Positions 51,402 to 64,000 of a stretch of DNA of 64,000 bases are shown here, in pieces. A program made the translations under genes and the position numbers. Origin of the DNA: Planctomycetota bacterium. Lineage in GTDB: Bacteria > Planctomycetota > PLA2. Every line of letters starts with the position of its first letter. Within the stretch, counting starts at the first letter, position 1. The notes beneath the pieces are model-generated. The model had not been told where the DNA came from and made no database searches. It was given only the letters and a program-made list of their open reading frames with translations. The stretch spans positions 994-64,993 of the forward strand of contig JAPUHK010000024.1 in the NCBI GenBank assembly GCA_027297745.1, in the 5' to 3' direction.

Positions 51402-52745
51402 TCAGGGCTGCCGCGGAGCGCGCATCGCGCGCCCGTGCTGGTGCAGCGTCAGGGCCACGACCCTGCCGTCCTGCTTGTGGAAGGTGATGCGCGCGTCGAC
51501 CACTTTGTAGAAGAAGCTCGTCTCCGACTCGGGAAAGACCTGCAGCTTGGCCTGGCCTGTGGCCTGCACCATGAGCTTGTCGCCCTCGCGGGTGACCGTC
51601 AGCACAAACTGCGGCGTGAGCGCGTACGCGCCCGCGTAGGCGTCGTAGATCTTCGGGTCGACCTGCGCCTCCCGGGGCGGCTGCTCTCCACGCAGCAGCT
51701 TCATGATCCGCCGGCCGACGCTGTCGATCACGCCGTCGGCCGTGTTGCTGAGAATGACGAGAGCGTGCCCGCGCTGCGTGTCCACCGCTGCGAAGGAGTG
51801 GTAGCCGCCGGTCTGGCCGTTGTGCCTACGGTAGCCGAGCGGGTCGATGTGCCAGCCGAGCCCGAGCTTTTGCGCCTGGGGCGCGCCGGGCTTGTGGTGT
51901 ACCTTGCGCGCCAGCGCCAGGGCCGCGTGCATGCCGCCGTCCTTCTCTGCCAGATTCGCCTGCAGGAACGCCAGCATGTCGCGCACGGAGGAGCGAATGC
52001 CGCCCGCTCCGGCCAGCGTGGGGATGTCCCAGGTGGAGGACGGCACCCCGTTGGCCCGGTAGGGGGGTGCGAGCCGCTTGCGCATGTCCTGCGTGTACAC
52101 GATGCGCGTGCTCGGCATACCGAGCGGCTCCGTGATGCGCTCGACGAGCAGCGCCTCGTAGCTCTTGCCCGCCTTGCGCGCCAGCGCATGCCCTAGCAGG
52201 CCTGCGCCGAGGTTGCTATACGCGCTCTTCAGCCCTGGAGCGCGCTTCAAGGTGCAGCCGGACAAGAAGGCGTACATCAGCGCCGGCGTGTAGTCCGCGT
52301 AGGGATTGTTGGGATCCTTCGGGGCGAAGTTGCTCGGCATGCGCGGCAAGGCCGAGGTGTGCGTGGAGAGATCGACCAACGTGATCTTGCGCCCCCCGTG
52401 CGCCGGCACCTGCACCGTGTCGGGCAAGAGCTGCTCGAGCGGCTGGTCGAGGCGGACGCTGCCGTCCTGCACGAGCGCCGCCAACAGCACGCCCGTAAAG
52501 ACCTTGCTGATCGATCCGATCTCGTAGACGGTGTCCTGATCGGGCACGTCTTTCTCGCCCACTGTGACCTTGCCGTACCCGCGCACCCACGGCTGCTTGT
52601 CGCGCGCCTCGATCACGCCGATCGTCATCCCCACGACGCTGCCGCTCCCGATTACCGGCTGCGCGAGGGCGTCGACCTCCCGCGCGAGGTCTTTGGCGGC
52701 CGCGCACGGCAGGGCCACGAGCAAGATGAGCAGAACGCCTCTCAT
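51402..52745 (-). CDS. Serine hydrolase of the class C beta-lactamase / PBP4* family
   Basis: Signal peptide MRGVLLILLVALPCAAA. Motifs SISK (SxxK) and YSN are present, with a C-terminal extra domain. Confidence 0.85.
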   Translation of the reverse strand: MRGVLLILLVALPCAAAKDLAREVDALAQPVIGSGSVVGMTIGVIEARDKQPWVRGYGKVTVGEKDVPDQDTVYEIGSISKVFTGVLLAALVQDGSVRLDQPLEQLLPDTVQVPAHGGRKITLVDLSTHTSALPRMPSNFAPKDPNNPYADYTPALMYAFLSGCTLKRAPGLKSAYSNLGAGLLGHALARKAGKSYEALLVERITEPLGMPSTRIVYTQDMRKRLAPPYRANGVPSSTWDIPTLAGAGGIRSSVRDMLAFLQANLAEKDGGMHAALALARKVHHKPGAPQAQKLGLGWHIDPLGYRRHNGQTGGYHSFAAVDTQRGHALVILSNTADGVIDSVGRRIMKLLRGEQPPREAQVDPKIYDAYAGAYALTPQFVLTVTREGDKLMVQATGQAKLQVFPESETSFFYKVVDARITFHKQDGRVVALTLHQHGRAMRAPRQP

Positions 52746-52990
52746 GACCACCCTCCAAGGGTAATCGACGGCGCGCCCACGCACGACGCTGCCGTCTGCG
52801 CACGCGCGCAAGCGCGTAGGCGCACGGTGGCGATTGGACGAATGCGTGCAGTCGTTCCAACCACGCCGCCCGTGCGCCGGATCCCCGTTGGAGCGCTCGA
52901 ACCTTATCGTGCACCGCGAGCGGCACCCGTGTTGCGTATGCGGAGGCGGGCTAAGGGACGAGCGGAGCCTCAACCGAGAGAGGAGAGCTC

Positions 52991-53557
52991 ATGCGTAAGG
53001 GAACGATCGCCCTGTGTCTACTCGTCTGTGCTGCAGGCACCTACGCGGCAGTCGAGTGGACCGTCGGCAACGGAGACGCAGGCGGGGCCAATCTGCATCA
53101 GATGGGCAAGTCCGGCATCAAGGCTCGCATCCGTATCGTGGATCACGGTGACCCGGCCGCGGGTCTCGAGGTGACGGGCACGGCCACGGGCCTCGACCCG
53201 GGCCAAGCCTATTTCTCGCTGTTTTACGACAGCAGGGCCAAGCCCTCCGGTCCTTCGGCCTGCGCGCCCAACGTGCCGGGCGCCCTGACCCCGCCTCAGA
53301 TGTTCATCTCCTTCTGGCAGGTGGACGGCAACGGCAACGGCACGCTGCACGTGACCAAGACCGGCCCCTCCTACGCCGCTCTGGGCGCCCTGGGGGGGCC
53401 ATGTCGATCCGTCTGGGCGCCACCGGCGCGCTGCAGGCCTGCGGTAAGGTCACTCCCGCCGACGAGTCCGCGCGCACCTGCCGCCTCCAGCGTTGACCCA
53501 CGATCCCAACGAAAAGCGGGGCGCCCGTTTCAGGGCGCCCCGCGCTGTTGGCTGTGA
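52991..53557 (+). CDS. Secreted hypothetical protein, frameshifted at a G7 tract (probable true stop at 53494-53496)
   Basis: MRKGTIALCLLVCAAGTYA signal peptide. After GGGGGGG (53392-53398) the annotated frame turns Arg/Pro-rich and reads through a terminator hairpin. The other frame gives AMSIRLGATGALQACGKVTPADESARTCRLQR* with high GC3. Confidence 0.65.
   Translation: MRKGTIALCLLVCAAGTYAAVEWTVGNGDAGGANLHQMGKSGIKARIRIVDHGDPAAGLEVTGTATGLDPGQAYFSLFYDSRAKPSGPSACAPNVPGALTPPQMFISFWQVDGNGNGTLHVTKTGPSYAALGALGGPCRSVWAPPARCRPAVRSLPPTSPRAPAASSVDPRSQRKAGRPFQGAPRCWL
53516..53543 (-). terminator. Rho-independent terminator after the 11-heme cytochrome gene
   Basis: GCGGGGCGCCC-n6-GGGCGCCCCGC. On the minus strand it is followed by TTTTCGTTGGG. 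Confidence 0.65.
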
Positions 53558-53566
53558 GTCCGTGGA

Positions 53567-56395
53567 CTAGGGTCCGCTGACGTAGTTGCCGGCGTTGCCC
53601 CCGATGTTGCCGTTGGCGTCCAGCCAGGAGTCCAGGTGGATTCCGATGGCCGGGTCGGGGTTGGTCAGCCTGTCGATCAGCGTGCCCGTCAGCGGTCCCG
53701 CCATGGTCGGGTTGGGCGTGCCCGTGCGCAAGCTCGGGCCCGTCCCCGGCATGAGCGGGTGGTTGCTGGAGCTCGTCGGAGTTCCGTCCGCGAGCACGAT
53801 GCTGTCCAGGTTGTAAGCGATGCGGGTCATGAACGTGGCCGGGTCGAAGGCCGTCGCCGGCGCGACCGTCACGTTCTGGATGCCCGGATCGGCGAAGATG
53901 CCGTACCGGTTCGGGTTCTGGTCCAGCGGGTTGATAGCGCCGCCGTTCCCGTCGAACAGGAACAGCCCCGTACCCAGGCCGGCCACCATGTGCACCCAGA
54001 AGGGTGAGTTCATCTGGTTGCCGGAGTTCTGGCCGAAGTGCTGCCTCAGCTCCGTGAAGTCCAGTTGATCGTAGCTTCCGCTCGCCATGGCGGAACGGAA
54101 GGCCACGTACTCGGTCCCGTACTGCTGCATACCCGCCTCGGTGATGTGGCACGCGACGCAGTAGCGCGGGCCCTCCATGGTGGAGGTGACGCGGCCGCGG
54201 ATCGAGTGGGCCATCATCGCGTTGTGACCGAGCGAGGGCGTTTGGTTGGGGTCGCTCCCCTGCGCCTTGCGGTCGGAGAACGTGAAGATGCTGGACAGCT
54301 GGTTGTTGCGGTCCTCCCACTGGAAGAACATCTTCGTGTTCGAGCTGACCTGCGTGATCTCGTTGTGCGGGCTGATGCCCAGCGCCATGAACACGGGCGA
54401 CTGGTACACGAACTCGGCCTCGTCCTCCTCGAAGACGATGCGCTCGCCCGTGATGTTGCTGAAGTCATTCGAGTACTCGCCCTTCAGGTGACAGCCCATG
54501 CACGTGTTCGTCCACGAAGCGTGGCAGGACGCGCAGTCCAGGTCGTCCGTGTGGCTGAAGTTGCTCGGGACCGCGTTGTTCGCCTGGATCGGACCTATGC
54601 CGGTCGTGCCCAGGCCGTCGTCACGGCCCATCGCATAGGAGGCCTTGTCGCTGTACAGGGGCGCCCCGCTGAACGGGTGCGTCCGGCCCGTGTTCACGGT
54701 GACGTCCAGCGTCTGCGGGACGAAGTGACGCGCGCCCGTGAGACGGCTGTACAGGTAGAAGTGGCCGTCGCTCTCCAGCACGACGTGCGCCAGGGTGTTC
54801 CCCTCGCCGTCCACCGCCAGCTCCTGGGTGGTGTTGTCGTAGGCCGTGCCTTGAGCCGTCTGGGCATAGGCCGCGACGCCGCCGTGGCAGCTCTCGCAAC
54901 GGATCCCCACGGCGTGCTCCATGCGGCTCACGATCTTGCCGCCGCTCGGGGAGGTCACGTCGCCGCCGTGCAGGTCGAAGCTGCCGTGGCAGTCGATGCA
55001 GCCCATGCCGGCCTCGTAGTGCACGTCGGGCGGGGTGTCGTCGCGGCCGTCGTCGTCGTAGTCCTCCTCGAGGAGGTACTGGTTGCGGTTGCGCCCGTTG
55101 AACTCGCGGTTCCCCAACCGGATCAGGACGCCGTTCTGGTCGTAGATCGGCAGGTTGGGGTCGAACAGGCGCGTGTCGCCGGAGGTCGTCCGGTAACTTC
55201 CCGGCTGCGACGGGTACTGGAAGCCGCGCCGCACGTCCTGGTTCTGGTCGAGGCGGATGCCCCAGTACTGCATGACCGTGCGGTTCGAGCCCTGGTGGCA
55301 GCCGGCGCAGGCGTAGTCGTCGATGCCCTGGACGAACTCGCCGCTGGACAACGTCTTGGCCACGGTGCGGATCAGGTGGCGGGCGACGTGCGGCAGCTCG
55401 GGCTCGTCGATGTCGTCCGGATCGTACGGCTCCATGCGGTTGAGGTTCGGATCGTTGCTGGTGGAGCGCCCGCTCAGGCTGTGGCGCATGTGGCACGCCG
55501 AGCAACCCGAGCCGCGGTAGTCGCCGTAGCGGTTGTTCGCGCCGGCGCTGCCGAGGTGGCAGTCTCCGCAGGTGTAGGCGATCTGCTCGTGATAGAGCTT
55601 CGCCAGCGGGGAGTCCGTGATCGCCTGGCCCGTCAGCGGATCGATGTCGTCATCGAGCTCGGCGGCGTCGAAATCCGGGTTGTTGCGGATGTCGTTCGGG
55701 CCGTTGTTGAAGCGCCGGCTGTAGACCGGGAACTCCATCAGGTTTTGCACCGAACCGAAGGTCGTCGGGTCGAAGCTCTGGTCCGTGACGGCGCGAATGC
55801 CCAGGTCGGCGGCCGTGTCCTCGTAGCCCGTGTACCCCATCTGGTTGTCCACGCCGGCCGCGAACATCGCGCCGGAGAAGATGCCCATCTCGGTGGCGAT
55901 CGGGCTCTGGGACACGATCTGCGCGTGGTTCGCGTGGCACTGGCCGCAGCTGCGGTTCTGCGTGACCACGCGGATGTCGGCCGGGCTGACGAACTGCAGC
56001 CAGTCCAGCGCGCTGTAGGTCTGCCCGTTCGCGGCCGTGTAGTCCGGGAACTTGTCCGGACCGGCCAGGGTCAGCCGGTTGAAGTAGGCGTGGTCGTTGT
56101 TGATCCAGTTCTGCCGGTCGCCGATCTCGGGCGGCGCCGGGACGTGGCTCGAGGCCCTGTCCGTCCCGTTCGGGTTTCCGCCGTGGCAGGTGGTGCACAG
56201 CAGGTTGCTGGCGCCCGTGAAGGGGTGTGGGTTCTCGAGGCCCGGGCCCCCGTAGTTGTTGTCCACGGAGCCGTTGTGGCAGGTCATGCACGACTGGGCC
56301 GACGCTGTGATCGCGCGGCCGCTGGAGTCGACGCAGCCCGTCACGACGAACGCCAGTAGGAAGATGACTGAGAGGAGACCTCTGTGATGAGTCAT
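53567..56395 (-). CDS. Large multiheme c-type cytochrome lipoprotein (11 CXXCH)
   Basis: MTHHRGLLSVIFLLAFVVTGC carries a lipobox. The motifs are CMTCH, CTTCH, CGQCH, CGDCH, CSACH, CAGCH, CIDCH, CESCH, CASCH, CMGCH and CVACH. Confidence 0.9.
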   Translation of the reverse strand: MTHHRGLLSVIFLLAFVVTGCVDSSGRAITASAQSCMTCHNGSVDNNYGGPGLENPHPFTGASNLLCTTCHGGNPNGTDRASSHVPAPPEIGDRQNWINNDHAYFNRLTLAGPDKFPDYTAANGQTYSALDWLQFVSPADIRVVTQNRSCGQCHANHAQIVSQSPIATEMGIFSGAMFAAGVDNQMGYTGYEDTAADLGIRAVTDQSFDPTTFGSVQNLMEFPVYSRRFNNGPNDIRNNPDFDAAELDDDIDPLTGQAITDSPLAKLYHEQIAYTCGDCHLGSAGANNRYGDYRGSGCSACHMRHSLSGRSTSNDPNLNRMEPYDPDDIDEPELPHVARHLIRTVAKTLSSGEFVQGIDDYACAGCHQGSNRTVMQYWGIRLDQNQDVRRGFQYPSQPGSYRTTSGDTRLFDPNLPIYDQNGVLIRLGNREFNGRNRNQYLLEEDYDDDGRDDTPPDVHYEAGMGCIDCHGSFDLHGGDVTSPSGGKIVSRMEHAVGIRCESCHGGVAAYAQTAQGTAYDNTTQELAVDGEGNTLAHVVLESDGHFYLYSRLTGARHFVPQTLDVTVNTGRTHPFSGAPLYSDKASYAMGRDDGLGTTGIGPIQANNAVPSNFSHTDDLDCASCHASWTNTCMGCHLKGEYSNDFSNITGERIVFEEDEAEFVYQSPVFMALGISPHNEITQVSSNTKMFFQWEDRNNQLSSIFTFSDRKAQGSDPNQTPSLGHNAMMAHSIRGRVTSTMEGPRYCVACHITEAGMQQYGTEYVAFRSAMASGSYDQLDFTELRQHFGQNSGNQMNSPFWVHMVAGLGTGLFLFDGNGGAINPLDQNPNRYGIFADPGIQNVTVAPATAFDPATFMTRIAYNLDSIVLADGTPTSSSNHPLMPGTGPSLRTGTPNPTMAGPLTGTLIDRLTNPDPAIGIHLDSWLDANGNIGGNAGNYVSGP

Positions 56396-56419
56396 TTCTG
56401 ATCTCACTTTGCCCGACCC

Positions 56420-56630: not shown

Positions 56631-57278
56631 TCAATTGACGGCCGGCACCCATGCCGTGGGCACGTGGCACTCGTGGCAGTTGTCGACGAAGCCCAGCGGG
56701 ATGTGGGGGGGATTGGTGGTGTTGTTCCGGTCGTCCACGTGGCACGTGACGCACTCGGTGTCCACGGGGATGAAGTTGCCGACCCGCGCGCCCGGGTGGC
56801 AGCGGTAGCAGGCCACCAACGTGTGGGCGCCGAGCAGCGGGAAGCGCGTCCGGTCGTGGAGCGCGATCTGGCCCACGGGGCGCCAGGTCTGCTCGGTGTG
56901 GCAGCGGGTGCAGTCCTTGTCCAGGTCGCCGTAGTGGTAGTCCTCGTGGCAGCCCGTGCAGCCCTGCGAGTGGAAGATCGCCACAGGCCCGCGGTCGTTG
57001 TGGCAACGCAGACATTGCGCCTGCTCATGAGCCCCGTTGAGAGCGAAGCCGGTGTTGGCCAGGTGGTTGAACTTGAAGTCGCTCTTGAGCTTGTTCCAGT
57101 CACCGCCCACGTGGCACAGCTGACAGTCGGCCGGGAACGAGTCGTGCGGCAGGACCGGTCCGAAACCCGCCCACCAACGGTGCTGCTTGCCGGTCAGCGG
57201 GCGCGCGGCGGCGCAGGCCAACAGGATCGCGCTCAGGAGCGCGATCGCGATCGGGCGTCTACGGAATCGGAATCGCAT
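56631..57278 (-). CDS. Periplasmic multiheme c-type cytochrome (7 CXXCH)
   Basis: MRFRFRRRPIAIALLSAILLACAAA is a signal peptide and LLAC could be a lipobox. The motifs are CQLCH, CLRCH, CTGCH, CTRCH, CYRCH, CVTCH and CHECH. Confidence 0.9.
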   Translation of the reverse strand: MRFRFRRRPIAIALLSAILLACAAARPLTGKQHRWWAGFGPVLPHDSFPADCQLCHVGGDWNKLKSDFKFNHLANTGFALNGAHEQAQCLRCHNDRGPVAIFHSQGCTGCHEDYHYGDLDKDCTRCHTEQTWRPVGQIALHDRTRFPLLGAHTLVACYRCHPGARVGNFIPVDTECVTCHVDDRNNTTNPPHIPLGFVDNCHECHVPTAWVPAVN

Positions 57279-57290
57279 GGGTATCAACTC

Positions 57291-59081
57291 TCAAAAGCCC
57301 TTCTGCCAGGTGAACCCAGCGGACCACGAGATCTCCTTGTCGTAGGCGACGACCTCCCCGAACACGTAGACGTCCCAGTTTCCGACGCGATAGACGCTCA
57401 AGCTGCCGCGCAGACGTTGCTGCACCAGGTCGTCCCGGTTCGCGTTCAGGCCGTGGATGTGGTGGAAGGCAAGCTCGTACATCAGGTCCCACCTGCCCTT
57501 GGCCGTCGTGCGGCCGTAGAGGAGACGCACGCCCGCCACGCTCTCGTACTGGCCGATGTTGCCGTAGCCGACGAGGTCCAGGTGCGCCTGGCGCCGCAGC
57601 GTCTGTTCGACGCCGATGTCGAACGCGCCGCCGCTGCCGTCCTCGTCGACCCAGCCGCTGACGTGCCCGTGCAGGCGCCTGTCGGCGCCCAGCATCTTCC
57701 AGAGGTTCAGCGCCAGCCGGTCGAACTCGTTGTTCGCCAGGTCGGCGGCGAAGACGATGGGACGGTATTCGCCCTCCCGCAAGAGCTCTGCGAACGCCCA
57801 GTGCTGATAGAGGAACTGGATGCCGCCCCGGGCGAAGGTGCGGTTCAGGGAGGCGATGGCCTGCGTGATCTCTATGCCTGAGCCCTTGATCGGGTCGCTG
57901 GCGGAGTAGAAGTCGACCCAGATCGTGGCGTGGAAGGCCCAGCCGTCCACCGGCAGAACGTGCATGCGGGCCACCAGGAGGTCGCGGTCCGGGTTGCCGT
58001 TGTTCCAGGTCTTCTGGAAGCCGCCGGCGATCAGGAAACGCTCGTTCGGGTCCTGCACCCACTCGTACCAGCCCGCCAGCTGGAAGTCCTCGAAGGTGTC
58101 GAAGTCGTCGTTCAGCTCCGGCATGTAGCCCATGCTCACGCCGTAGCGGTGCCCGTTGTCGCCCCTATGCGCCCACTGCAGGCCGTCCAGCACGCCGAAC
58201 TCGGGCATGCCGTGCTGCAGGAAGCGGCCGACCTCCCAGCGGTTGCTGTTGAAGCGATTTCCGCCGCGGAAATAGGAGAGGCGGCGCAGCAGGAAGTCCC
58301 CCGTGAGGTCGCTGTTGTACTTGTAGTTCGCCAGGTAGGCCGCCTCCGCGTTGAGGCGGAAGCCGCCGCCCTTGCCGAAGGGATTCGAGTAGGTCAGGTC
58401 CGTGCCGACTCGCAAGTAGGAGCTGGTGAAGTCGCTGTCGGGGTTGTCCGTCACCGCGGCGCTCACATAGGTGAAGCCGGCGAGCCCCTTCCGGCGGTTC
58501 TTGGGGCGCACGGCTCCGGTCTCGGCCAGCAGCGACTTGCTCGTGGACCACTCCTCGTCCTTGTTCTTCCAGGGCGGGTGTTCCGGAGTCTCGCCCTCGG
58601 TGCCCGCGGCAGCAGCGCCTCCGGCTGCCGCTGCACCTGCGGCGACTCCGGCGCCGTCTTTGTCCTTGTCTTCCGGCTCGCCTTCGCCTTCCGGCTTGGT
58701 GCCTTCCCCTTCAGGCTGTCCGCCTTCGGGTTCCGGTTGCAGTTCGGGCTCCGGCTCAGGATCGGGTTGCGTGAAGCGCGAAGCCGGGATCAGCACTTCG
58801 CCGCGCGTGCCCGCTTCGGGAACGAACTTGGCGTCGCGCATCTCGACCACCGCGCTGCGCGCGCGGACCGAGAGCACGGTTCCGGAATAGGTGCCGCCCT
58901 GGCGCGGGAAGAAGGACACGACGTCGCCGATGGCGAGGCCGTCCCGCTTGCCGCGGTCGATGGTGACCGAGGCTCCGGGTCCCGCGGAGCTCACGCGCAG
59001 GGACACACGTTCCAGCTCTTCCTGCGCCCATGCGGACACGCAGGTCCACAGGACCATGGAGAGCAGAATTACAAGCCTCAC
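57291..59081 (-). CDS. Putative outer-membrane beta-barrel protein with periplasmic N-domain and acidic linker
   Basis: The GTG start overlaps the upstream stop (GTGA). The signal peptide is (M)RLVILLSMVLWTCVSAWA. A PE-rich linker (PDPEPEPELQPEPEGGQPEGEG) follows. About 400 aa show alternating amphipathic strands, ending ...SWSAGFTWQKGF with a terminal Phe. Confidence 0.6.
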   Translation of the reverse strand: MRLVILLSMVLWTCVSAWAQEELERVSLRVSSAGPGASVTIDRGKRDGLAIGDVVSFFPRQGGTYSGTVLSVRARSAVVEMRDAKFVPEAGTRGEVLIPASRFTQPDPEPEPELQPEPEGGQPEGEGTKPEGEGEPEDKDKDGAGVAAGAAAAGGAAAAGTEGETPEHPPWKNKDEEWSTSKSLLAETGAVRPKNRRKGLAGFTYVSAAVTDNPDSDFTSSYLRVGTDLTYSNPFGKGGGFRLNAEAAYLANYKYNSDLTGDFLLRRLSYFRGGNRFNSNRWEVGRFLQHGMPEFGVLDGLQWAHRGDNGHRYGVSMGYMPELNDDFDTFEDFQLAGWYEWVQDPNERFLIAGGFQKTWNNGNPDRDLLVARMHVLPVDGWAFHATIWVDFYSASDPIKGSGIEITQAIASLNRTFARGGIQFLYQHWAFAELLREGEYRPIVFAADLANNEFDRLALNLWKMLGADRRLHGHVSGWVDEDGSGGAFDIGVEQTLRRQAHLDLVGYGNIGQYESVAGVRLLYGRTTAKGRWDLMYELAFHHIHGLNANRDDLVQQRLRGSLSVYRVGNWDVYVFGEVVAYDKEISWSAGFTWQKGF

Positions 59082-61156
59082 CGCTTTTCTTCCTTCGCGC
59101 CCCGGCGGAACGGGTTCTCGTCCTCGCCGTGGCAATCGGCGCACCTGCCCCCCATCGGGCGATAGCGGATGAAGTCTTTACCGTTCTCGCGAACTGGTAA
59201 ATGGCAGGCGGAGCAGGCCAGGGGGGTGTGGGCCTCCCCGAGCTGGAAGCTCGAGTCCAGGTCGTGGCGGAAGCTCAGGTCCGTGAAGGCCGCAGCGGCA
59301 GGCCTGTGGCAGCTCCGGCAGTCGGTCAGCCCCTTCACCTCGAACTGCCCGGCATGGGAATCCTGGTGGCAATCCGAGCAGTGGCCGCCCTTGGCGCGGG
59401 CCCAGGTGCGCCCGGCCTCGTCCGGCTCCCGCAGGGGGGTGTGGCAGTCGGCGCAGTCGACTTTCTTGTGCTGGCCGACCAGGGCGAAGCCGGTCCAGCG
59501 CTTGTGGTCGAAGCCGTTCGGGAAGGTCCGGAACGAGCTCTCGCCGTGGCAGCGCTCGCAGCCGGTCTTGCCCTTGAAGGTGCGCGGCATGCCGGGCTTG
59601 TCGAAGTCGTTCTTGTGCGGATCGATGTGGCACGTGTCGCACCCCTCGTACACGCCGAAGCGATCCGAGACGCGGCCGAACGTGCGGCCGAAGCGGTCGG
59701 GTTCCGGGGTGCGCGGGTGGCAGGCCTCGCACTCCTCCTGCGCGTGGGCCGCGACTAGCGGGAACCCCGTCCACGGGCCGTGGTCGAAGGCCTCGGGCGG
59801 GATGTCCCGGAAGTCCGTGGCCAGGTGGCAGTCGGCGCAGCGGCCGTACGTGCTCGCCGATGTCTCCGGCGCGAACTGCTCGAAGAACCCCTCGTGCGGG
59901 TCCGGATGGCATCCGGCGCACTTGACGGGAGTCCCGTGGAACACGCGCGGGCTGCCCTCGATGGGCGCCGCCTCGTGGCACGCGTTGCAGTCGGTCTCGA
60001 TATGGCTGCCGATCAAAGGCAGGGACGTCTCCGCGTGCATCTCGACGCTGAAGATGTGCGGCTCGAAGTAGAGCGTCCCGTGGCAGGCGACGCACGCGCC
60101 GCTCTTGAACGAACCCTCGCCGAACTGGCCGCCGTGGGGATCCTCGTGGCACGCGGCGCAGTCGTCGGCCGCGCGGGCCGGGTAGCGGGCCTTGAAGTCC
60201 TCGTGGTTGAGATCGTGGCAGTCCGCGCAGCCCACTTCGTGATGCGGATCGGTGAGCGAGAACCCGGAGCTTTCGTGCTGCTCCACGGTCATCTCCCCGA
60301 GCTGCCTGTCGTTCCAGGTCGTGTGCTCCGCGCGATGGCACACGTCACAGGCGGCGCCGGTGGGGCGGGAGACCTGCAACGCGACGCCGTCGACGAAACC
60401 CTCGGCGTGCGAGTTCGCGTGGCAGTCCACGCACATGCGCGCGGCCGGGGCGCGATTCTCGCCTAGCGCCTCGAGCGTGTAGGGCTCGTTCGCGTGGCAG
60501 GAGCGGCACTCCATGTTGCTGTGGCCGCCGATCAGCTGCAGGTAGTCCTCGTGGCCGCGCGACTCCAGCTCCGCCCAGGCGCGTTGCCCGTGGCACTGGA
60601 CGCAGCTCAGCGCCGCGTAGCGGCCCTCGTGCACATCCCCGTGGCACGTCGTGCACTCCTGGTCGAGCCCGATGTAGCGCGTCGCGCCCTCCGGCAGGAT
60701 CTCGATGTTCACCTGCAGGTGGCACTCGTTGCAGGCCAGCTCGATGTGCCGGCCGTCCATGGGGAAGCGGATCATGTTGTGGTCGAACTCCGCCGGGTCG
60801 GGCACGCCCGCGGCCGCGAAGCTCTGCCGGTTGACGATGGCGAAGCCCGCGCCGTGGTGCTCGCTGTGGCACAACGCGCACAGCATGGCCTTGTTCCCAA
60901 TCACGCCGTGGAGTCCGTTTCCGGCGGCGATCTGCGCGTCGATCGTCTTGTGGCACTCGAGACACGCATCCGACATGCTCAGGAACAATCCGCCGTGGCA
61001 CGCGGAGCAGCTCTCGCCGCGGTTCAGGTCGCCCACGCGCGCGTGGACGGCCGTGACCTCTCCCGGTGACTTGCGCCCGAGGTGGCCGATCACGACGTAG
61101 AGCACCGCCGCAGCCGAGGCCAGGCCGATCCAGAGGCCGGGACGTCCCAGCTTCAA
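59078..61156 (-). CDS. Membrane-anchored multiheme c-type cytochrome (23 CXXCH)
   Basis: N-terminal anchor GLWIGLASAAAVLYVVIGHL. I counted 23 CXXCH motifs in 692 aa. A recurring module is F-x-H...F-x-L-x-G-x-H-x4-5-CXXCH. The putative TTG start overlaps the upstream stop (TTGA). Confidence 0.85.
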   Translation of the reverse strand: MKLGRPGLWIGLASAAAVLYVVIGHLGRKSPGEVTAVHARVGDLNRGESCSACHGGLFLSMSDACLECHKTIDAQIAAGNGLHGVIGNKAMLCALCHSEHHGAGFAIVNRQSFAAAGVPDPAEFDHNMIRFPMDGRHIELACNECHLQVNIEILPEGATRYIGLDQECTTCHGDVHEGRYAALSCVQCHGQRAWAELESRGHEDYLQLIGGHSNMECRSCHANEPYTLEALGENRAPAARMCVDCHANSHAEGFVDGVALQVSRPTGAACDVCHRAEHTTWNDRQLGEMTVEQHESSGFSLTDPHHEVGCADCHDLNHEDFKARYPARAADDCAACHEDPHGGQFGEGSFKSGACVACHGTLYFEPHIFSVEMHAETSLPLIGSHIETDCNACHEAAPIEGSPRVFHGTPVKCAGCHPDPHEGFFEQFAPETSASTYGRCADCHLATDFRDIPPEAFDHGPWTGFPLVAAHAQEECEACHPRTPEPDRFGRTFGRVSDRFGVYEGCDTCHIDPHKNDFDKPGMPRTFKGKTGCERCHGESSFRTFPNGFDHKRWTGFALVGQHKKVDCADCHTPLREPDEAGRTWARAKGGHCSDCHQDSHAGQFEVKGLTDCRSCHRPAAAAFTDLSFRHDLDSSFQLGEAHTPLACSACHLPVRENGKDFIRYRPMGGRCADCHGEDENPFRRGAKEEKR

Positions 61157-63378
61157 CTTTTGCCCCCGAAGAAGAAGGGGTAGTACGCGAGCGCGTAGAC
61201 GATGTGGATTACCACCAGCAGCACCATCAGCGCCGCCATCCAGCGGTGCAACCAGCGCCAGGTGCCGAGCACCGCGCGCAGGTCCTCATAGTGCGCCGCC
61301 ATGAGCGCCGTGCGGTGTGCCTTGCGCGCGAGCTGCATCGTTTCCTTGATCTGCTCCTCGTCGATGCCCTCTTCACGCCCTTCGTCCTCCAGGCGTGTGA
61401 GCAAGCGCTTCAAGCCGCCCCGGCCGGTCAGCATGGACAGCACGCGCCCAAGGAACCCCGAGCCCCATTGCTTCTTCTCGATCAGCTCATCCACCGCGCT
61501 GCGCGCCCGTTCGCGGTACTCCCGTTGGCCCTGGTCCCACTCCTCGGACATGCGGCCGAGGCGGGCCTTGACCTCCTGCAGCTCCAGCTCGCGTCCGTTC
61601 GCGGCGCGCGGCACGCAGGCGTAGAAGTAGCGTCCGATGGCGCCGGTGACCAACAGCACCGCCAGCGCCCAAAAGGCGTGCCCCGCGACGGTGTTGCCGG
61701 GCGCCATGGCGCCGTGCAGCGTCGCCAGCAAGAGCGCCAGGATGCCCGTGGCGACGTGGCTCGTCATCCAGATCTGCAGGGAGCCGACGTTGAGCCGGAA
61801 GCGCGGCGAACGCCGCACCAGATAAAGGAGGTTCACGAGGATCAGCGCGGTCGCGCCGATGCCCAGCCACAGGCCGAGGCCGAGGCCCGGGCGCAGCAGC
61901 GCATGCTTCGGGTGCGCGGCGCGCGCGGAGGCCGGCAGGCCGTAGTAGTCCGCGTGCACCATGACCCAGACCAACGCGGCCAGCGAGAGTGTGAAGCCGA
62001 TGCCGAGCGCGTGGACCAGGCCCGTGCCCTGCTCGCCGAGCTGGGGCGCCGCCTTGCGCAGCGACGGGTCGAAGGACACGCCCGAGCGTTCGAGCAGCTC
62101 CAGCGGCGCGCTGCCGCCCGCCATCACGAACACCTCGTCGTTCGGCAACGTGCGCGTCGCCGTGCCGTAGCCGCTCTGCACCGTGAGCTCGACCGAGTCC
62201 GGACGGATCGCCCGCACTTCGCTGTTGAACAGGACCTCGAGCTTGCCCTCGCGCAGGCATTCGTCCAGGCGCTCCTGGTTCTTGGGTCGAATGCGGAAGA
62301 AGCTCTCCTTGCGGTACGAGAGCGTCACCTGGTTCCCCGGTTGCTCCGCGAGACCCATGGCCGCCTCGACCGCGCTGTCGCCGCCGCCGACGACCAACGT
62401 GCGCCGGTGCTGGTACGAGTGGGCGTCCAGCAGGCTGTAGGCCACCTTGGACAGGTCTTCGCCTTCCACGCCGAGCTTGCGCGGCGAGCCGCGGCGGCCC
62501 ACCGCCAGACAGACGTTGCGCGCCGTGTAACTGCCGGTCTTGGTGCGCACGACGTAATTGCCGTCGTCGTCCCGGCTAAGACCCACGAACGTCTCCTGGG
62601 AGCGGATCGGCAGCTGCTGCTCCTCCGCGATGTGCGCCCACAGCTCGACCAGCTCTTCCTTCGTGTAACTGGACTTCAGGCGGCCGTAGAGCGGCAGGTC
62701 GACCGGCTGGCTCATGATCAGCTTGCGCCGCGGGTACTTCGCGACCGTGCCGCCGGGCCCGCTCTCCTGGTCCAGCGTCACGAACTTCAGGCCGTGGCGC
62801 TTGGCCTCGAGCGAACACGCCAGGCCGGCGGGGCCGGCGCCGACCACGCACAGGTCCAGCGTGCCGTTGGGGTTGGGCTCGTGCTCCAGGCGCCGCGCGA
62901 CTTCGCCCGCTACGGCCGTTCCGTGGTCGACGGCGGTCTTGATCAGCGAGTGCGCGGTCACCTCACCCGCGAGGAACAGCCCGGGCGAGCCCACGGCCTC
63001 GAGCTGTTCGGTCAGGACCGGGATGTCCCGGCGCTCGGCGATGTCGCTCAGCGTGACCTTGATCGCGCCGACGGGGCACTCGCGCTCACACAGGGCATGG
63101 CCGACGCAGCGCGCGCCGTGCACGACCATGGCCTGGCCGTGCACGAGCTTCAGCACCTGGTCCTCGGGACAGACGTCGACGCACGTGCCGCAGCCCAGGC
63201 AGCGGGACAGATCGACGACGGGTTGGGCGAGCTGGGCCTTGTCACTCCCCTGACGGACCGCCTGCTCACGGTCGCCCAGCGCGCGGCGCATGCGCCGGAG
63301 CTCCAGGCGCCGCGCGATCGCCACCATGAGGGATAGGCCTAGGGCGACTACGACTCCAATAAGGAGGGGCCAACTCAT
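61153..63378 (-). CDS. Inner-membrane fusion protein: TM anchor + ferredoxin-type FeS domain + FAD/NAD(P)-binding oxidoreductase + C-terminal 5-TM domain with two H-x13-H pairs
   Basis: GGAG Shine-Dalgarno. FeS motifs C60LGCGTCVDVCP and C91VGHALCERECP. Dinucleotide folds VVGAGPAGLA and VVGGGDSAVEAA. His541-x13-His555 and His711-x13-His725 lie in hydrophobic helices. Confidence 0.85.
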   Translation of the reverse strand: MSWPLLIGVVVALGLSLMVAIARRLELRRMRRALGDREQAVRQGSDKAQLAQPVVDLSRCLGCGTCVDVCPEDQVLKLVHGQAMVVHGARCVGHALCERECPVGAIKVTLSDIAERRDIPVLTEQLEAVGSPGLFLAGEVTAHSLIKTAVDHGTAVAGEVARRLEHEPNPNGTLDLCVVGAGPAGLACSLEAKRHGLKFVTLDQESGPGGTVAKYPRRKLIMSQPVDLPLYGRLKSSYTKEELVELWAHIAEEQQLPIRSQETFVGLSRDDDGNYVVRTKTGSYTARNVCLAVGRRGSPRKLGVEGEDLSKVAYSLLDAHSYQHRRTLVVGGGDSAVEAAMGLAEQPGNQVTLSYRKESFFRIRPKNQERLDECLREGKLEVLFNSEVRAIRPDSVELTVQSGYGTATRTLPNDEVFVMAGGSAPLELLERSGVSFDPSLRKAAPQLGEQGTGLVHALGIGFTLSLAALVWVMVHADYYGLPASARAAHPKHALLRPGLGLGLWLGIGATALILVNLLYLVRRSPRFRLNVGSLQIWMTSHVATGILALLLATLHGAMAPGNTVAGHAFWALAVLLVTGAIGRYFYACVPRAANGRELELQEVKARLGRMSEEWDQGQREYRERARSAVDELIEKKQWGSGFLGRVLSMLTGRGGLKRLLTRLEDEGREEGIDEEQIKETMQLARKAHRTALMAAHYEDLRAVLGTWRWLHRWMAALMVLLVVIHIVYALAYYPFFFGGKS

Positions 63379-63435: not shown

Positions 63436-64000
63436 CTACTTGCCGCCGGCGCTTCGCGCCCTGAGCTCCCGGTCCCGGGAGCTGCCGCTGACGTTCATGG
63501 ACGTGGCCTTGCGTCGCGTCTCGCCCTGGCTGAAGGCCGGGGCAGGCGGGCCCTCGACGGGCTGGGCGGCGCTCACGGGCAGGGCGGCCGACTCGACATA
63601 CGCGCGAGCAGCCTTCAGGCAGGCGTCGAACTCGCCGTCGAGATCAGAGACCCGCTTGGCCAGCGCGCGCGCTTCGCCCTGGATCTCGGACACGGCCACG
63701 GGGTTGAGGTCGTTGCCCAGGAAGAGCGCGTGGTCGCGCAGGCTGTTGTTGACCGCATCATAGGACGCCAGGGCGGGCTCCGCGGCCGCGACGATGGCGT
63801 GGTAACGCTCGCGAGTCTCCACCAAGCGGTTGCGGCTGCGCTGGCGCAGCTCCACGCTGCTGATGTCCTTGAGGTCATCGGCCCACTGATCGAAGACCGG
63901 ATCGCTCGAGTCCTTCATGTTCTCGATGCTGTCCCGAAGCTTTTCGGCCTGCTCCTCGGAGTTCTCGATGGCCGTCATGAACTCCCCGTAGGCCGTAACC
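63436..64000 (-). CDS. DUF2959-like protein (5' end probably beyond the window)
   Basis: WADDLKDISSVELRQRSRNRLVETRERYHAIV...NNSLRDHALFLGNDLNPVAVSEIQGE. The frame stays open upstream of the listed Met to the window edge. Confidence 0.6.
   Translation of the reverse strand, partial: VTAYGEFMTAIENSEEQAEKLRDSIENMKDSSDPVFDQWADDLKDISSVELRQRSRNRLVETRERYHAIVAAAEPALASYDAVNNSLRDHALFLGNDLNPVAVSEIQGEARALAKRVSDLDGEFDACLKAARAYVESAALPVSAAQPVEGPPAPAFSQGETRRKATSMNVSGSSRDRELRARSAGGK

Follow-up and report, generated by a model that had tools for sequence, protein, structure and literature searches.

A 23-heme polymer of c7-like modules in a Planctomycetota gene cluster and its candidate role as a tethered heme wire

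The genome of a Planctomycetota bacterium (assembly GCA_027297745.1, contig JAPUHK010000024.1) encodes a 692-residue cytochrome with 23 c-type heme motifs. The gene lies in a 64,000-nucleotide stretch of the contig (positions 994 to 64,993, forward strand), here called the window. It belongs to a five-gene cluster that also encodes an inner-membrane redox protein, a predicted outer-membrane barrel, and two lipoprotein cytochromes. Sequence comparison identifies the protein as a polymer of three-heme modules. On balance, the evidence favors, with some reserve, a role as an inner-membrane-tethered wire in a conduit from NAD(P)H to the cell surface.

All 46 cysteines of the 23-heme protein belong to its CXXCH motifs. 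There are 30.1 residues per heme, consistent with the ratio of about one motif per 30 residues given in a first-pass annotation of the window. The motif density is far above chance, and a motif scan of the protein detected no CX3CH, CX4CH, or CXXCK. A protein search recovered more than 120 clusters of homologues with 48–56% identity, nearly all at 97–100% coverage and typically 680–700 residues long. These clusters are unnamed or labelled "hypothetical" or "cytochrome c3 family", and their source is Planctomycetota wherever it is named. An exact-sequence look-up returned no match to the protein of the window; the closest cluster, P0001, is 99% identical.

In an alignment of 40 family sequences, all 23 CXXCH motifs are invariant. 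Exactly 23 histidines outside the motifs are also invariant (Table 1). Methionine is nearly invariant at M61 and M133 only, and no methionine recurs from module to module. Because the 23 motifs are accompanied by exactly 23 further invariant histidines, the alignment implies that all 23 hemes are bis-His-ligated. Such ligation throughout the protein is typical for electron-transfer hemes and would leave no open catalytic site.

The motifs follow a strict three-heme period. The pattern H-x(9-11)-H-x4-CxxCH recurs at every third heme, namely hemes 4, 7, 10, 13, 16, 19, and 22. Cutting the family alignment at this pattern yields a divergent head module (M0), six tandem modules (M1–M6), and a terminal module (M7). 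Each of M0–M6 holds three invariant CXXCH motifs and three invariant extra histidines, whereas M7 holds two of each. M1–M6 are all built on the pattern H-x(9-11)-H-x4-CxxCH ... CxxCH-x3-H ... CxxCH. Pairwise comparison of M1–M6 with hhalign gives probabilities of 97–99.9% over 61–80 columns and E-values of 1e-11 to 9e-36, which may be flattered by the Cys/His-rich composition. The closest pair is M5 and M6, with 45% identity and an E-value of 9e-36. M7 aligns with M1–M6 at probabilities of 95–98% over 43–57 columns; its tail is of low confidence, with a predicted local distance difference test score (pLDDT) below 50 at residues 667–692. The head module opens with an invariant S-P-G motif directly behind the N-terminal hydrophobic segment and places heme 1 about 20 residues past that helix. 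It resembles the N terminus of MtrA (6r2q_A, residues 57–105) and matches the Cytochrome_C7 family with an E-value of 2e-4.

The Pfam profile Cytochrome_C7 (PF14522) matches the whole protein at 105.5 bits against a cut-off of 24.8 (E 1.3e-30). All eight modules match it separately over profile positions ~12–66 of 67, with Cytochrome_C7 as the top or near-top family. Taken singly, M2 (25.6 bits) and M6 (33.1 bits) exceed the cut-off, and the others score 19–23 bits. Three CXXCH motifs with putative bis-His ligation per c7-like unit of about 70–90 residues are found in M0–M6. By sequence, the protein is confirmed as a polymer of c7-like three-heme modules, with M0 as its head, M1–M6 as the complete units, and the two-heme M7 as its end. 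The first-pass annotation had postulated internal repeats that align as heme modules and belong to the cytochrome c7 type, and both ideas are upheld. The four strings it quoted for a recurring module are present at residues 124–146, 457–480, 549–572, and 629–652, but the module occurs in seven copies, not four.

The heme number of orthologues also changes in units of three. A scan of species-representative genomes detected at least 557 related stretches. Loci were taken from the best 80, and 82 fetched loci in all were analyzed by tblastn. The orthologue contains 23 hemes in 56 of the 82 loci and 26 hemes in 20. Two loci deviate from these counts, perhaps because their assemblies are truncated or contain errors. 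P0243 and P0245, two representatives that share the N terminus, contain 29 hemes. When six 26-heme proteins are aligned to the protein of the window, the three extra hemes form one block beside M5/M6, and this block is a further copy of the M5/M6-type module. Expansion by a three-heme quantum is well supported by these sequences, in line with the modular c7-type growth anticipated in the first-pass annotation.

An exhaustive search of representative sequences at E <= 1e-30 collected 614 clusters at 50% identity. All named sources among the top 150 of the 614 are Planctomycetota, save one 50-heme Chloroflexota protein. Distant relatives contain 39–94 hemes, for example 94 in a 2321-residue protein. 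P0315, P0368, P0362, P0369, P0306, and P0388 have 39, 39, 50, 59, 81, and 94 hemes, respectively, and P0362 comes from a Chloroflexota metagenome-assembled genome. The very large relatives share the motif F-x-H...G-x-H...CxxCH, form chains of up to 2321 residues, and contain one heme per ~24–26 residues. In several of them, the S-P-G-P-L head motif recurs behind a signal peptide of the usual kind.

The N terminus bears on where the polymer is located. Its hydrophobic segment (Table 1) is the sole one in the protein, with a Kyte–Doolittle mean of 1.95 over 19 residues, and is kept in all 40 aligned homologues. The homologues begin with a short basic stretch, followed by a hydrophobic run of ~18 residues and then V-V-D-x-x-R-x-S-P-G-P. 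The family consensus, AVVD-x-x-R-x-SPGP, contains no small residues at positions -1 and -3, and no conserved A-x-A-type site follows the segment. Within the helix, S14 and V18 hardly vary. The lack of a small-x-small signal-peptidase site, together with the near-invariance of S14 and V18, favors a helix retained as an inner-membrane tether. The first-pass annotation had likewise read an N-terminal anchor with no obvious cleavage site. The hydrophobic segment and the absence of a conserved site in the family are borne out, and tethering itself is suggested by them.

The gene starts with TTG, the first start codon past the upstream in-frame stop. This codon overlaps the TGA of the preceding gene by 4 nt (AGTTGA) and coincides with the N termini of independently called homologues. 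A start downstream of the anchor was rejected on the position of TTG as first in frame, its overlap with the upstream stop, and the aligned N termini of the homologues.

The 23-heme gene is embedded in a conserved cluster. The order membrane redox protein, 23-heme cytochrome, barrel, and 7-heme cytochrome is found in 79–82 of the 82 loci. The four genes are joined by a TTGA overlap, a GTGA overlap, and a 3-nt gap, and by this arrangement the 23-heme gene is translationally coupled to its neighbors. An 11-heme homologue lies downstream in 37 of the 82 loci, in the closer subclade, and a DUF2959 homologue lies upstream in 35. The best 80 loci all come from metagenome-assembled genomes, most of them assigned by label to Planctomycetota or one of its lineages; for a few, the label is just "bacterium". 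The cluster has so far been found in Planctomycetota only. Neither an oxidase nor a bc1-type partner is encoded in it. In the cultured Rohdeia mirabilis Pla163 (CP036290.1, locus L083), the set is complete, 23-heme orthologue included, and lies at about 4.318–4.340 Mb, with Pla163_32960 as the barrel gene.

Several variations of the cluster were observed. In Pla163, two opposite-strand genes (L083, 6830–9588) separate the 23-heme gene from the barrel gene; they encode an 832-residue SMC_N/AAA_23-type ATPase and an 86-residue protein. Insertions at the same junction are also present in L024 (~5 kb) and L066 (~1.8 kb). Three genomes contain two whole copies of the cluster each: L015/L070 (JAEUHZ01), L041/L079 (JAWKUI01), and L028/L081 (CAYMRG01). 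In these genomes, one copy belongs to the 23-heme/11-heme subclade and the other to a more distant subclade.

The inner-membrane redox protein combines three types of domain (Table 1). Pfam identifies Pyr_redox_3 (E 3.4e-45) and Fer4 families. The best solved relatives of the flavoprotein domain are YpdA/Bdr (7a7b, E 5.8e-22) and ferredoxin-NADP reductases of the thioredoxin reductase type. Among 70 homologues, the glycine motifs for FAD and NAD(P)H are invariant and a CxxC disulfide is absent. The six hydrophobic segments and the loop charges suggest that the cofactor domains are cytoplasmic, with a short C terminus outside. A tblastn search of plasmids with the membrane domain found no match.

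The five C-terminal helices span residues 454–472, 503–521, 536–554, 564–582, and 713–731. Helices 3 and 5 carry a W-x3-H-x13-H motif, W537/H541/H555 and W707/H711/H725, of which W537, H541, H555, W707, and H711 are conserved in the 70 homologues. Helix 4 carries T-G-x-x-G (578–582), with both G579 and G582 conserved. This C-terminal domain matches Ferric_reduct (6e-4) and DUF4405 (1.3e-3) weakly. The W-x3-H-x13-H motif occurs at least twice in 79 of 81 loci, and the fusion of membrane, flavoprotein, and ferredoxin domains is kept in 81 of 82. The ferredoxin domain has seven conserved cysteines, arranged as CxxCxxCxxxCP followed by C91-x5-C97-x3-C101-P. His94 occupies the position expected for the eighth cysteine and reaches less than 80% conservation among homologues. 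Because His94 replaces this cysteine, the second iron–sulfur cluster may be of the 3Fe-4S type or have a non-Cys ligand.

The genes downstream encode candidate outer-membrane parts. The AlphaFold2 model of the 617-residue protein has a mean pLDDT of 81.7, exceeding 90 over most of the barrel, and contains 22 strands. Its structural neighbors found with Foldseek are all outer-membrane barrels, including PapC/FimD ushers and porins, with E-values down to 1.7e-9. The barrel ends in phenylalanine, as do 69 of 78 homologues. A Pfam/NCBIfam scan of the protein found no family match, and a sequence search of the PDB gave chance-level matches only. Its gene probably starts at GTG 59081, where it overlaps the TGA of the cytochrome gene (GTGA), and this start would yield a normal signal peptide with its end at A-W-A/Q. 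Residues ~125–215 form an acidic low-complexity linker of Pro, Glu, Gly, and Ala (PEPEPEPELQPEPEGG...GAAAAGGAAAAG) that is predicted to be disordered, with pLDDT <50. For two barrel homologues, precomputed Pfam annotation gives MreC (PF04085) or CusF_Ec (PF11604).

Both lipoprotein cytochromes contain one cysteine beyond their CXXCH motifs, and in both it lies in the lipobox. The 7-heme protein has seven motifs, and its gene begins 3 nt past the barrel stop. At least 61 of 76 homologues likewise have a lipobox-like site. BLASTP aligns it with the 23-heme protein in five in-register ways (E 3e-13 to 7e-7), verifying the module that the first-pass annotation had noticed in both proteins. It is read as the component passing through the barrel. 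The 11-heme protein has 11 motifs, as do all seven homologues inspected, and a lipobox-like site occurs in at least 29 of 37 homologues. It matches ExtM and c7/c3 profiles weakly and is read as the cell-surface component. PDB searches with the two proteins gave weak c7/c3 or nitrite reductase matches only.

The distant subclade has a different arrangement. In L037, L039, L042, L045, L047, L052, L055, L067, L072, L076, L077, and L082, the 7-heme core is followed within one open reading frame (ORF) by 8–24 further C-terminal hemes, at 23–24 residues per heme. These fused ORFs start ~11.5–12.4 kb into the locus and encode 439–795 residues with 15–31 hemes. A separate homologue of the 946-residue, 11-heme type was not found by tblastn over the loci of this subclade. 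The fused product resembles a core for threading the barrel whose extension, a heme array that varies in length, would lie outside the cell. Threading of the barrel by the 7-heme core fits this arrangement, since the core is fused to an array where a separate surface cytochrome is absent.

Taken together, these features somewhat favor an inner-membrane-tethered heme wire within a trans-envelope conduit that leads from NAD(P)H to the cell surface. The uncleaved N-terminal helix would tether the 23-heme protein to the cytoplasmic membrane, with heme 1 adjoining the periplasmic face of the 741-residue protein and the wire extending across the periplasm. NAD(P)H would be oxidized in the cytoplasm on the thioredoxin-reductase-like flavoprotein domain. 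Electrons would then pass through the fused ferredoxin and cross the membrane by two b-hemes bound to the paired H-x13-H motifs. From there, they would travel along the 23 c-hemes through the periplasm and be transferred to the 7-heme lipoprotein threaded through the 22-strand barrel. Finally, electrons would leave through the 11-heme surface lipoprotein, with Fe(III)/Mn(IV) minerals or humic quinones among the candidate acceptors to be reduced outside the cell. A quinone pool would not be needed on this route.

The gene context suggests that the wire spans the periplasm, since an inner-membrane redox partner is encoded upstream and a barrel and lipoprotein cytochromes downstream. Scaling of length provides a second indication. 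The 12-heme Geobacter protein GSU1996 has a length of 12 nm according to the title of a reference listed in PMC10138318. Scaled from this value, 23 hemes would extend over ~20 nm. This is comparable to the width of a typical Gram-negative periplasm. The first-pass annotation had proposed a tethered, periplasm-spanning wire expanded from c7/c3 units. The c7-like expansion stands, and tethering and spanning are best regarded as suggestions. The strict three-heme periodicity, the all-bis-His ligand set, and the translationally coupled cluster with its NAD(P)H flavoprotein had escaped it.

A number of observations weigh against a straight conduit of this kind. The membrane domain stays below the threshold of Ferric_reduct (PF01794), scoring 20.3 bits where 28 are required (E 6e-4). 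The second iron–sulfur site has three conserved cysteines, not four. The tether is judged from sequence alone, and weak cleavage at the V-I-G/H stretch of the window protein is conceivable. Instead of relaying electrons straight through, the membrane domain might exchange them with quinones, as has been suggested for the PCC3 systems of Proteobacteria. For the direction of flow, the argument is purely thermodynamic. In addition, the cultured carrier Rohdeia mirabilis was, we assume, isolated aerobically; if so, a role in anaerobic mineral respiration is not obvious. The most specific form of the proposal is a quinone-independent conduit in which a NOX-like fusion feeds a tethered wire, its 23, 26, or 29 hemes set by the width of the periplasm, and then a barrel-threaded 7-heme protein and a surface cytochrome. 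It is put forward tentatively, as a possibility that we doubt more than we trust.

The polymer might alternatively be a soluble capacitor or shuttle, released by cleavage of a signal peptide, that buffers electrons between the membranes as proposed for GSU1996. Among solved structures, the closest in sequence is that of GSU1996 (3ov0, E 1.6e-7), for which a role as nanowire or capacitor in the periplasm has been described (PMC10138318). The distant relatives P0362, P0368, and P0388, which share the S-P-G-P head, have ordinary-looking signal peptides, and the V-I-G/H stretch of the window protein might allow weak cleavage. However, the consensus behind the helix lacks the small pair at -1 and -3, and near-invariant residues within the helix, such as S14 and V18, would be unusual in a discarded signal peptide. 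The gene is also translationally coupled to that of a membrane partner. Finally, length is quantized in whole modules, a property more in keeping with a spacer of fixed extent than with a store. We consider a soluble capacitor unlikely.

Less likely again is that the same hardware runs inward and serves in electron uptake. With its fused FAD/NAD(P)H and ferredoxin domains, the membrane protein seems suited to a pyridine-nucleotide couple in the cytoplasm, and outward flow is favored because reduction of NAD(P)+ (~-320 mV) by Fe(II)-type donors against the membrane potential would be strongly uphill, on bioenergetic reasoning. The 23 hemes are apparently all bis-His, a ligation that is usually of low potential, and the absence of an oxidase or bc1-type partner from the cluster also speaks against uptake. 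On the other hand, PCC3 and PCC4, the closest described architectures, come from Fe(II) oxidizers and were modelled as uptake systems that feed the quinone pool (PMC5566968, PMC10734462), and Mtr/Mto-type conduits are discussed as reversible (PMC10734462). The habitats of the carriers are varied and include activated sludge, groundwater, and lake water.

A catalytic role as a multiheme reductase or oxidase of a compound dissolved in the periplasm (for example nitrite, sulfite, hydroxylamine, selenite, or tellurite) was rejected as highly improbable: single modules have a weak profile likeness to ExtN/ExtO-type selenite/tellurite operon proteins and cytochrome c552, but these matches lie far below the family cut-offs, a sixth-ligand histidine is conserved for every heme, and the protein has no CXXCK or variant motif and no non-heme catalytic domain.

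Table 1. Features of the cytochrome cluster in the window, listed in the direction of the cluster; residue numbers refer to the protein concerned.
Feature	Coordinates	Strand	Description
DUF2959 protein	63436..63978	(-)	180 aa; first cluster gene; Pfam DUF2959 E 6.3e-22
Inner-membrane redox protein	61153..63378	(-)	741 aa; directly upstream of 23-heme gene
Domains of the 741-aa protein			Transmembrane helix 1 (TM1) 4–22; ferredoxin 60–101; thioredoxin reductase (TrxR)-like FAD/NAD(P)H flavoprotein ~175–445; five-helix domain 454–731
23-heme c-type cytochrome	59078..61156	(-)	692 aa; TTG start; subject of the analysis
N-terminal hydrophobic segment LWIGLASAAAVLYVVIGHL	61079..61135	(-)	Residues 8–26; read as uncleaved membrane anchor
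Head module M0	60803..61069	(-)	Residues 30–118; hemes 1–3 and H38, H83, H100; divergent
Six tandem modules M1–M6	59282..60802	(-)	Residues 119–625; hemes 4–21
Terminal module M7	59081..59281	(-)	Residues 626–692; hemes 22–23; H631, H643; basic tail
Invariant extra His, first half			H38, 83, 100, 126, 137, 176, 202, 212, 250, 294, 305, 341
Invariant extra His, second half			H374, 385, 421, 459, 471, 514, 551, 563, 601, 631, 643
Outer-membrane protein	57291..59144	(-)	617 aa; signal peptide, small N-terminal beta domain ~44–120, acidic linker, barrel 220–616
7-heme lipoprotein cytochrome	56631..57287	(-)	218 aa; lipobox LLAC, Cys25
11-heme lipoprotein cytochrome	53567..56407	(-)	946 aa; lipobox VTGC; 223-nt gap behind 7-heme gene
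Lipoprotein-like ORF	52991-53557	(+)	188 aa; N terminus with LLVCAAG; downstream of cluster
Beta-lactamase/serine-hydrolase-like ORF	51402-52973	(-)	Translation judged by eye; downstream of cluster

Further genes flank the cluster. The DUF2959 homologue precedes it also in L001, L002, and L083. Directly upstream of DUF2959, L002 (2884–6182) and L083 (1–795) encode ResB and CcsA/Cytochrom_C_asm, components of System II cytochrome c maturation; the window ends short of the equivalent position. The two ORFs downstream of the cluster (Table 1) show no conserved adjacency to it in the other loci inspected.

The literature on multiheme cytochromes, porins, and extracellular electron transfer in Planctomycetota, on DUF2959, on Rohdeia/Saltatorellus, and on extracellular electron transfer by ferric-reductase domains yielded no description of this cluster. 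One preprint mentions unnamed "novel clusters" of multiheme cytochromes in Planctomycetota. To our knowledge, no NAD(P)H-to-surface conduit has been described for non-anammox Planctomycetota. If the proposed conduit is correct, a large and widespread group of Planctomycetota possesses an overlooked, dedicated route of extracellular electron transfer; the group comprises at least the 557 stretches in species-representative genomes and the 614 sequence clusters counted above. Fermentative or microaerobic planctomycetes could then dump reducing power onto minerals or humics, and the part that this group plays in the cycling of iron, manganese, and humics would have to be reassessed for sludge, groundwater, lake, and sediment habitats. 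Confirmation of the NAD(P)H-linked partner would come as a surprise. Whether NAD(P)H can be wired to the exterior without the quinone pool becomes a testable question, and the natural series of 23, 26, and 29 hemes offers a built-in ruler for the bridging of the periplasm by a single polypeptide. The cultured Pla163 makes the cluster experimentally approachable.

The type of system is known in outline, with c7 polymers as the nearest proteins and PCC3 as the nearest system, and the Planctomycetota version is new in several respects. The c7 polymers of Geobacter, GSU1996 and GSU0592 with 12 hemes and GSU2210 with 27, are likewise single chains of tandem three-heme domains and are regarded as periplasmic "nanowires" (PMC10138318). 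Their ratio of residues per heme is similarly low. However, each GSU1996 domain contains one His-Met heme (PMC10138318), whereas all sixth ligands of the 23-heme protein are apparently histidines. Sequence similarity is weak, and the profile of GSU1996-type domains, TIGR04257 (nanowire_3heme), scores 18.1 bits against a cut-off of 40 and covers residues 38–70 only. The 23-heme protein further differs in its N-terminal membrane segment, its MtrA-like head, its fixed location in a porin–cytochrome cluster, and its occurrence in another phylum.

MtrCAB of Shewanella and the OmaB/OmbB/OmcB Pcc system of Geobacter also place a periplasm-facing multiheme cytochrome in a large barrel and combine it with a surface lipoprotein cytochrome. 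Their link to the inner membrane consists of small soluble cytochromes and quinol dehydrogenases such as CymA, ImcH, or CbcL, not of a tethered 23-heme protein. The barrel described here has 22 predicted strands and no sequence likeness to any solved chain. MtrA resembles the 23-heme protein in its head module and in the CxxCH-x(2-3)-H pattern (6r2q_A, E 4.5e-7; DmsE-family profile, E 1.3e-16), but the score for the MtrA/DmsE profile TIGR03508 is 60.9 bits against a cut-off of 192.2. A quinol dehydrogenase of the NapC/NirT/CymA type was considered and rejected: Cytochrom_NNT is absent from the whole-protein scan, and single modules match it at E 0.059–0.48 only. The 23-heme protein does not reach the Ext family profiles.

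In the Hmc complex of Desulfovibrio, the 16-heme HmcA (a large modular c3/c7-type cytochrome), a membrane cytochrome b, and cytoplasmic iron–sulfur subunits link the periplasm and the cytoplasm. HmcA matches the 23-heme protein weakly (1h29 and 1gws, E 6e-4). Hmc is built from other subunit families and has neither outer-membrane parts nor a fused NAD(P)H flavoprotein.

The closest described system is PCC3 of Sideroxydans, Leptothrix, and other Proteobacteria, known from genome analysis only (PMC5566968, PMC10734462). Its periplasmic cytochrome has 21, 24, or 27 hemes, in steps of three, with repeats and a low ratio of residues per heme (PMC5566968), and has been called periplasm-spanning (PMC10734462). 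PCC3 comprises a barrel, this many-heme cytochrome, an extracellular cytochrome with a variable number of hemes, and a membrane protein, and the Planctomycetota cluster matches this composition, which gives the proposed conduit a precedent. The membrane proteins both have five helices, with (S/T)GxxG on helix 4 and W-x3-H-x13-H on helices 3 and 5; threonine replaces the serine of the PCC3 SGxxG in the 741-residue protein. In PCC3, the membrane protein stands alone with ~300 residues, whereas here it is the C-terminal part of the fusion with ferredoxin and NAD(P)H flavoprotein domains. The Planctomycetota cluster, which is likened to PCC3 by described features and not by sequence, also differs in its added 7-heme lipoprotein, its 23/26/29 heme numbers, and its hosts. 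The conserved hydrophobic segment of the 23-heme protein, read as an anchor, may be a further difference.

Finally, the inner-membrane protein resembles the NOX/FRE/MsrQ electron transferases of the ferric-reductase-domain type. In these, a flavin/NAD(P)H module in the cytoplasm is joined to a membrane domain whose paired H-x13-H helices hold two bis-His b-hemes, and electrons move outward (PMC5566968). In the 741-residue protein, the order of the domains is reversed, the dehydrogenase is like thioredoxin reductase and not FNR-like, and a ferredoxin domain is interposed. Its acceptor would be a wire of c-type hemes, not O2 or Fe(III) chelates.

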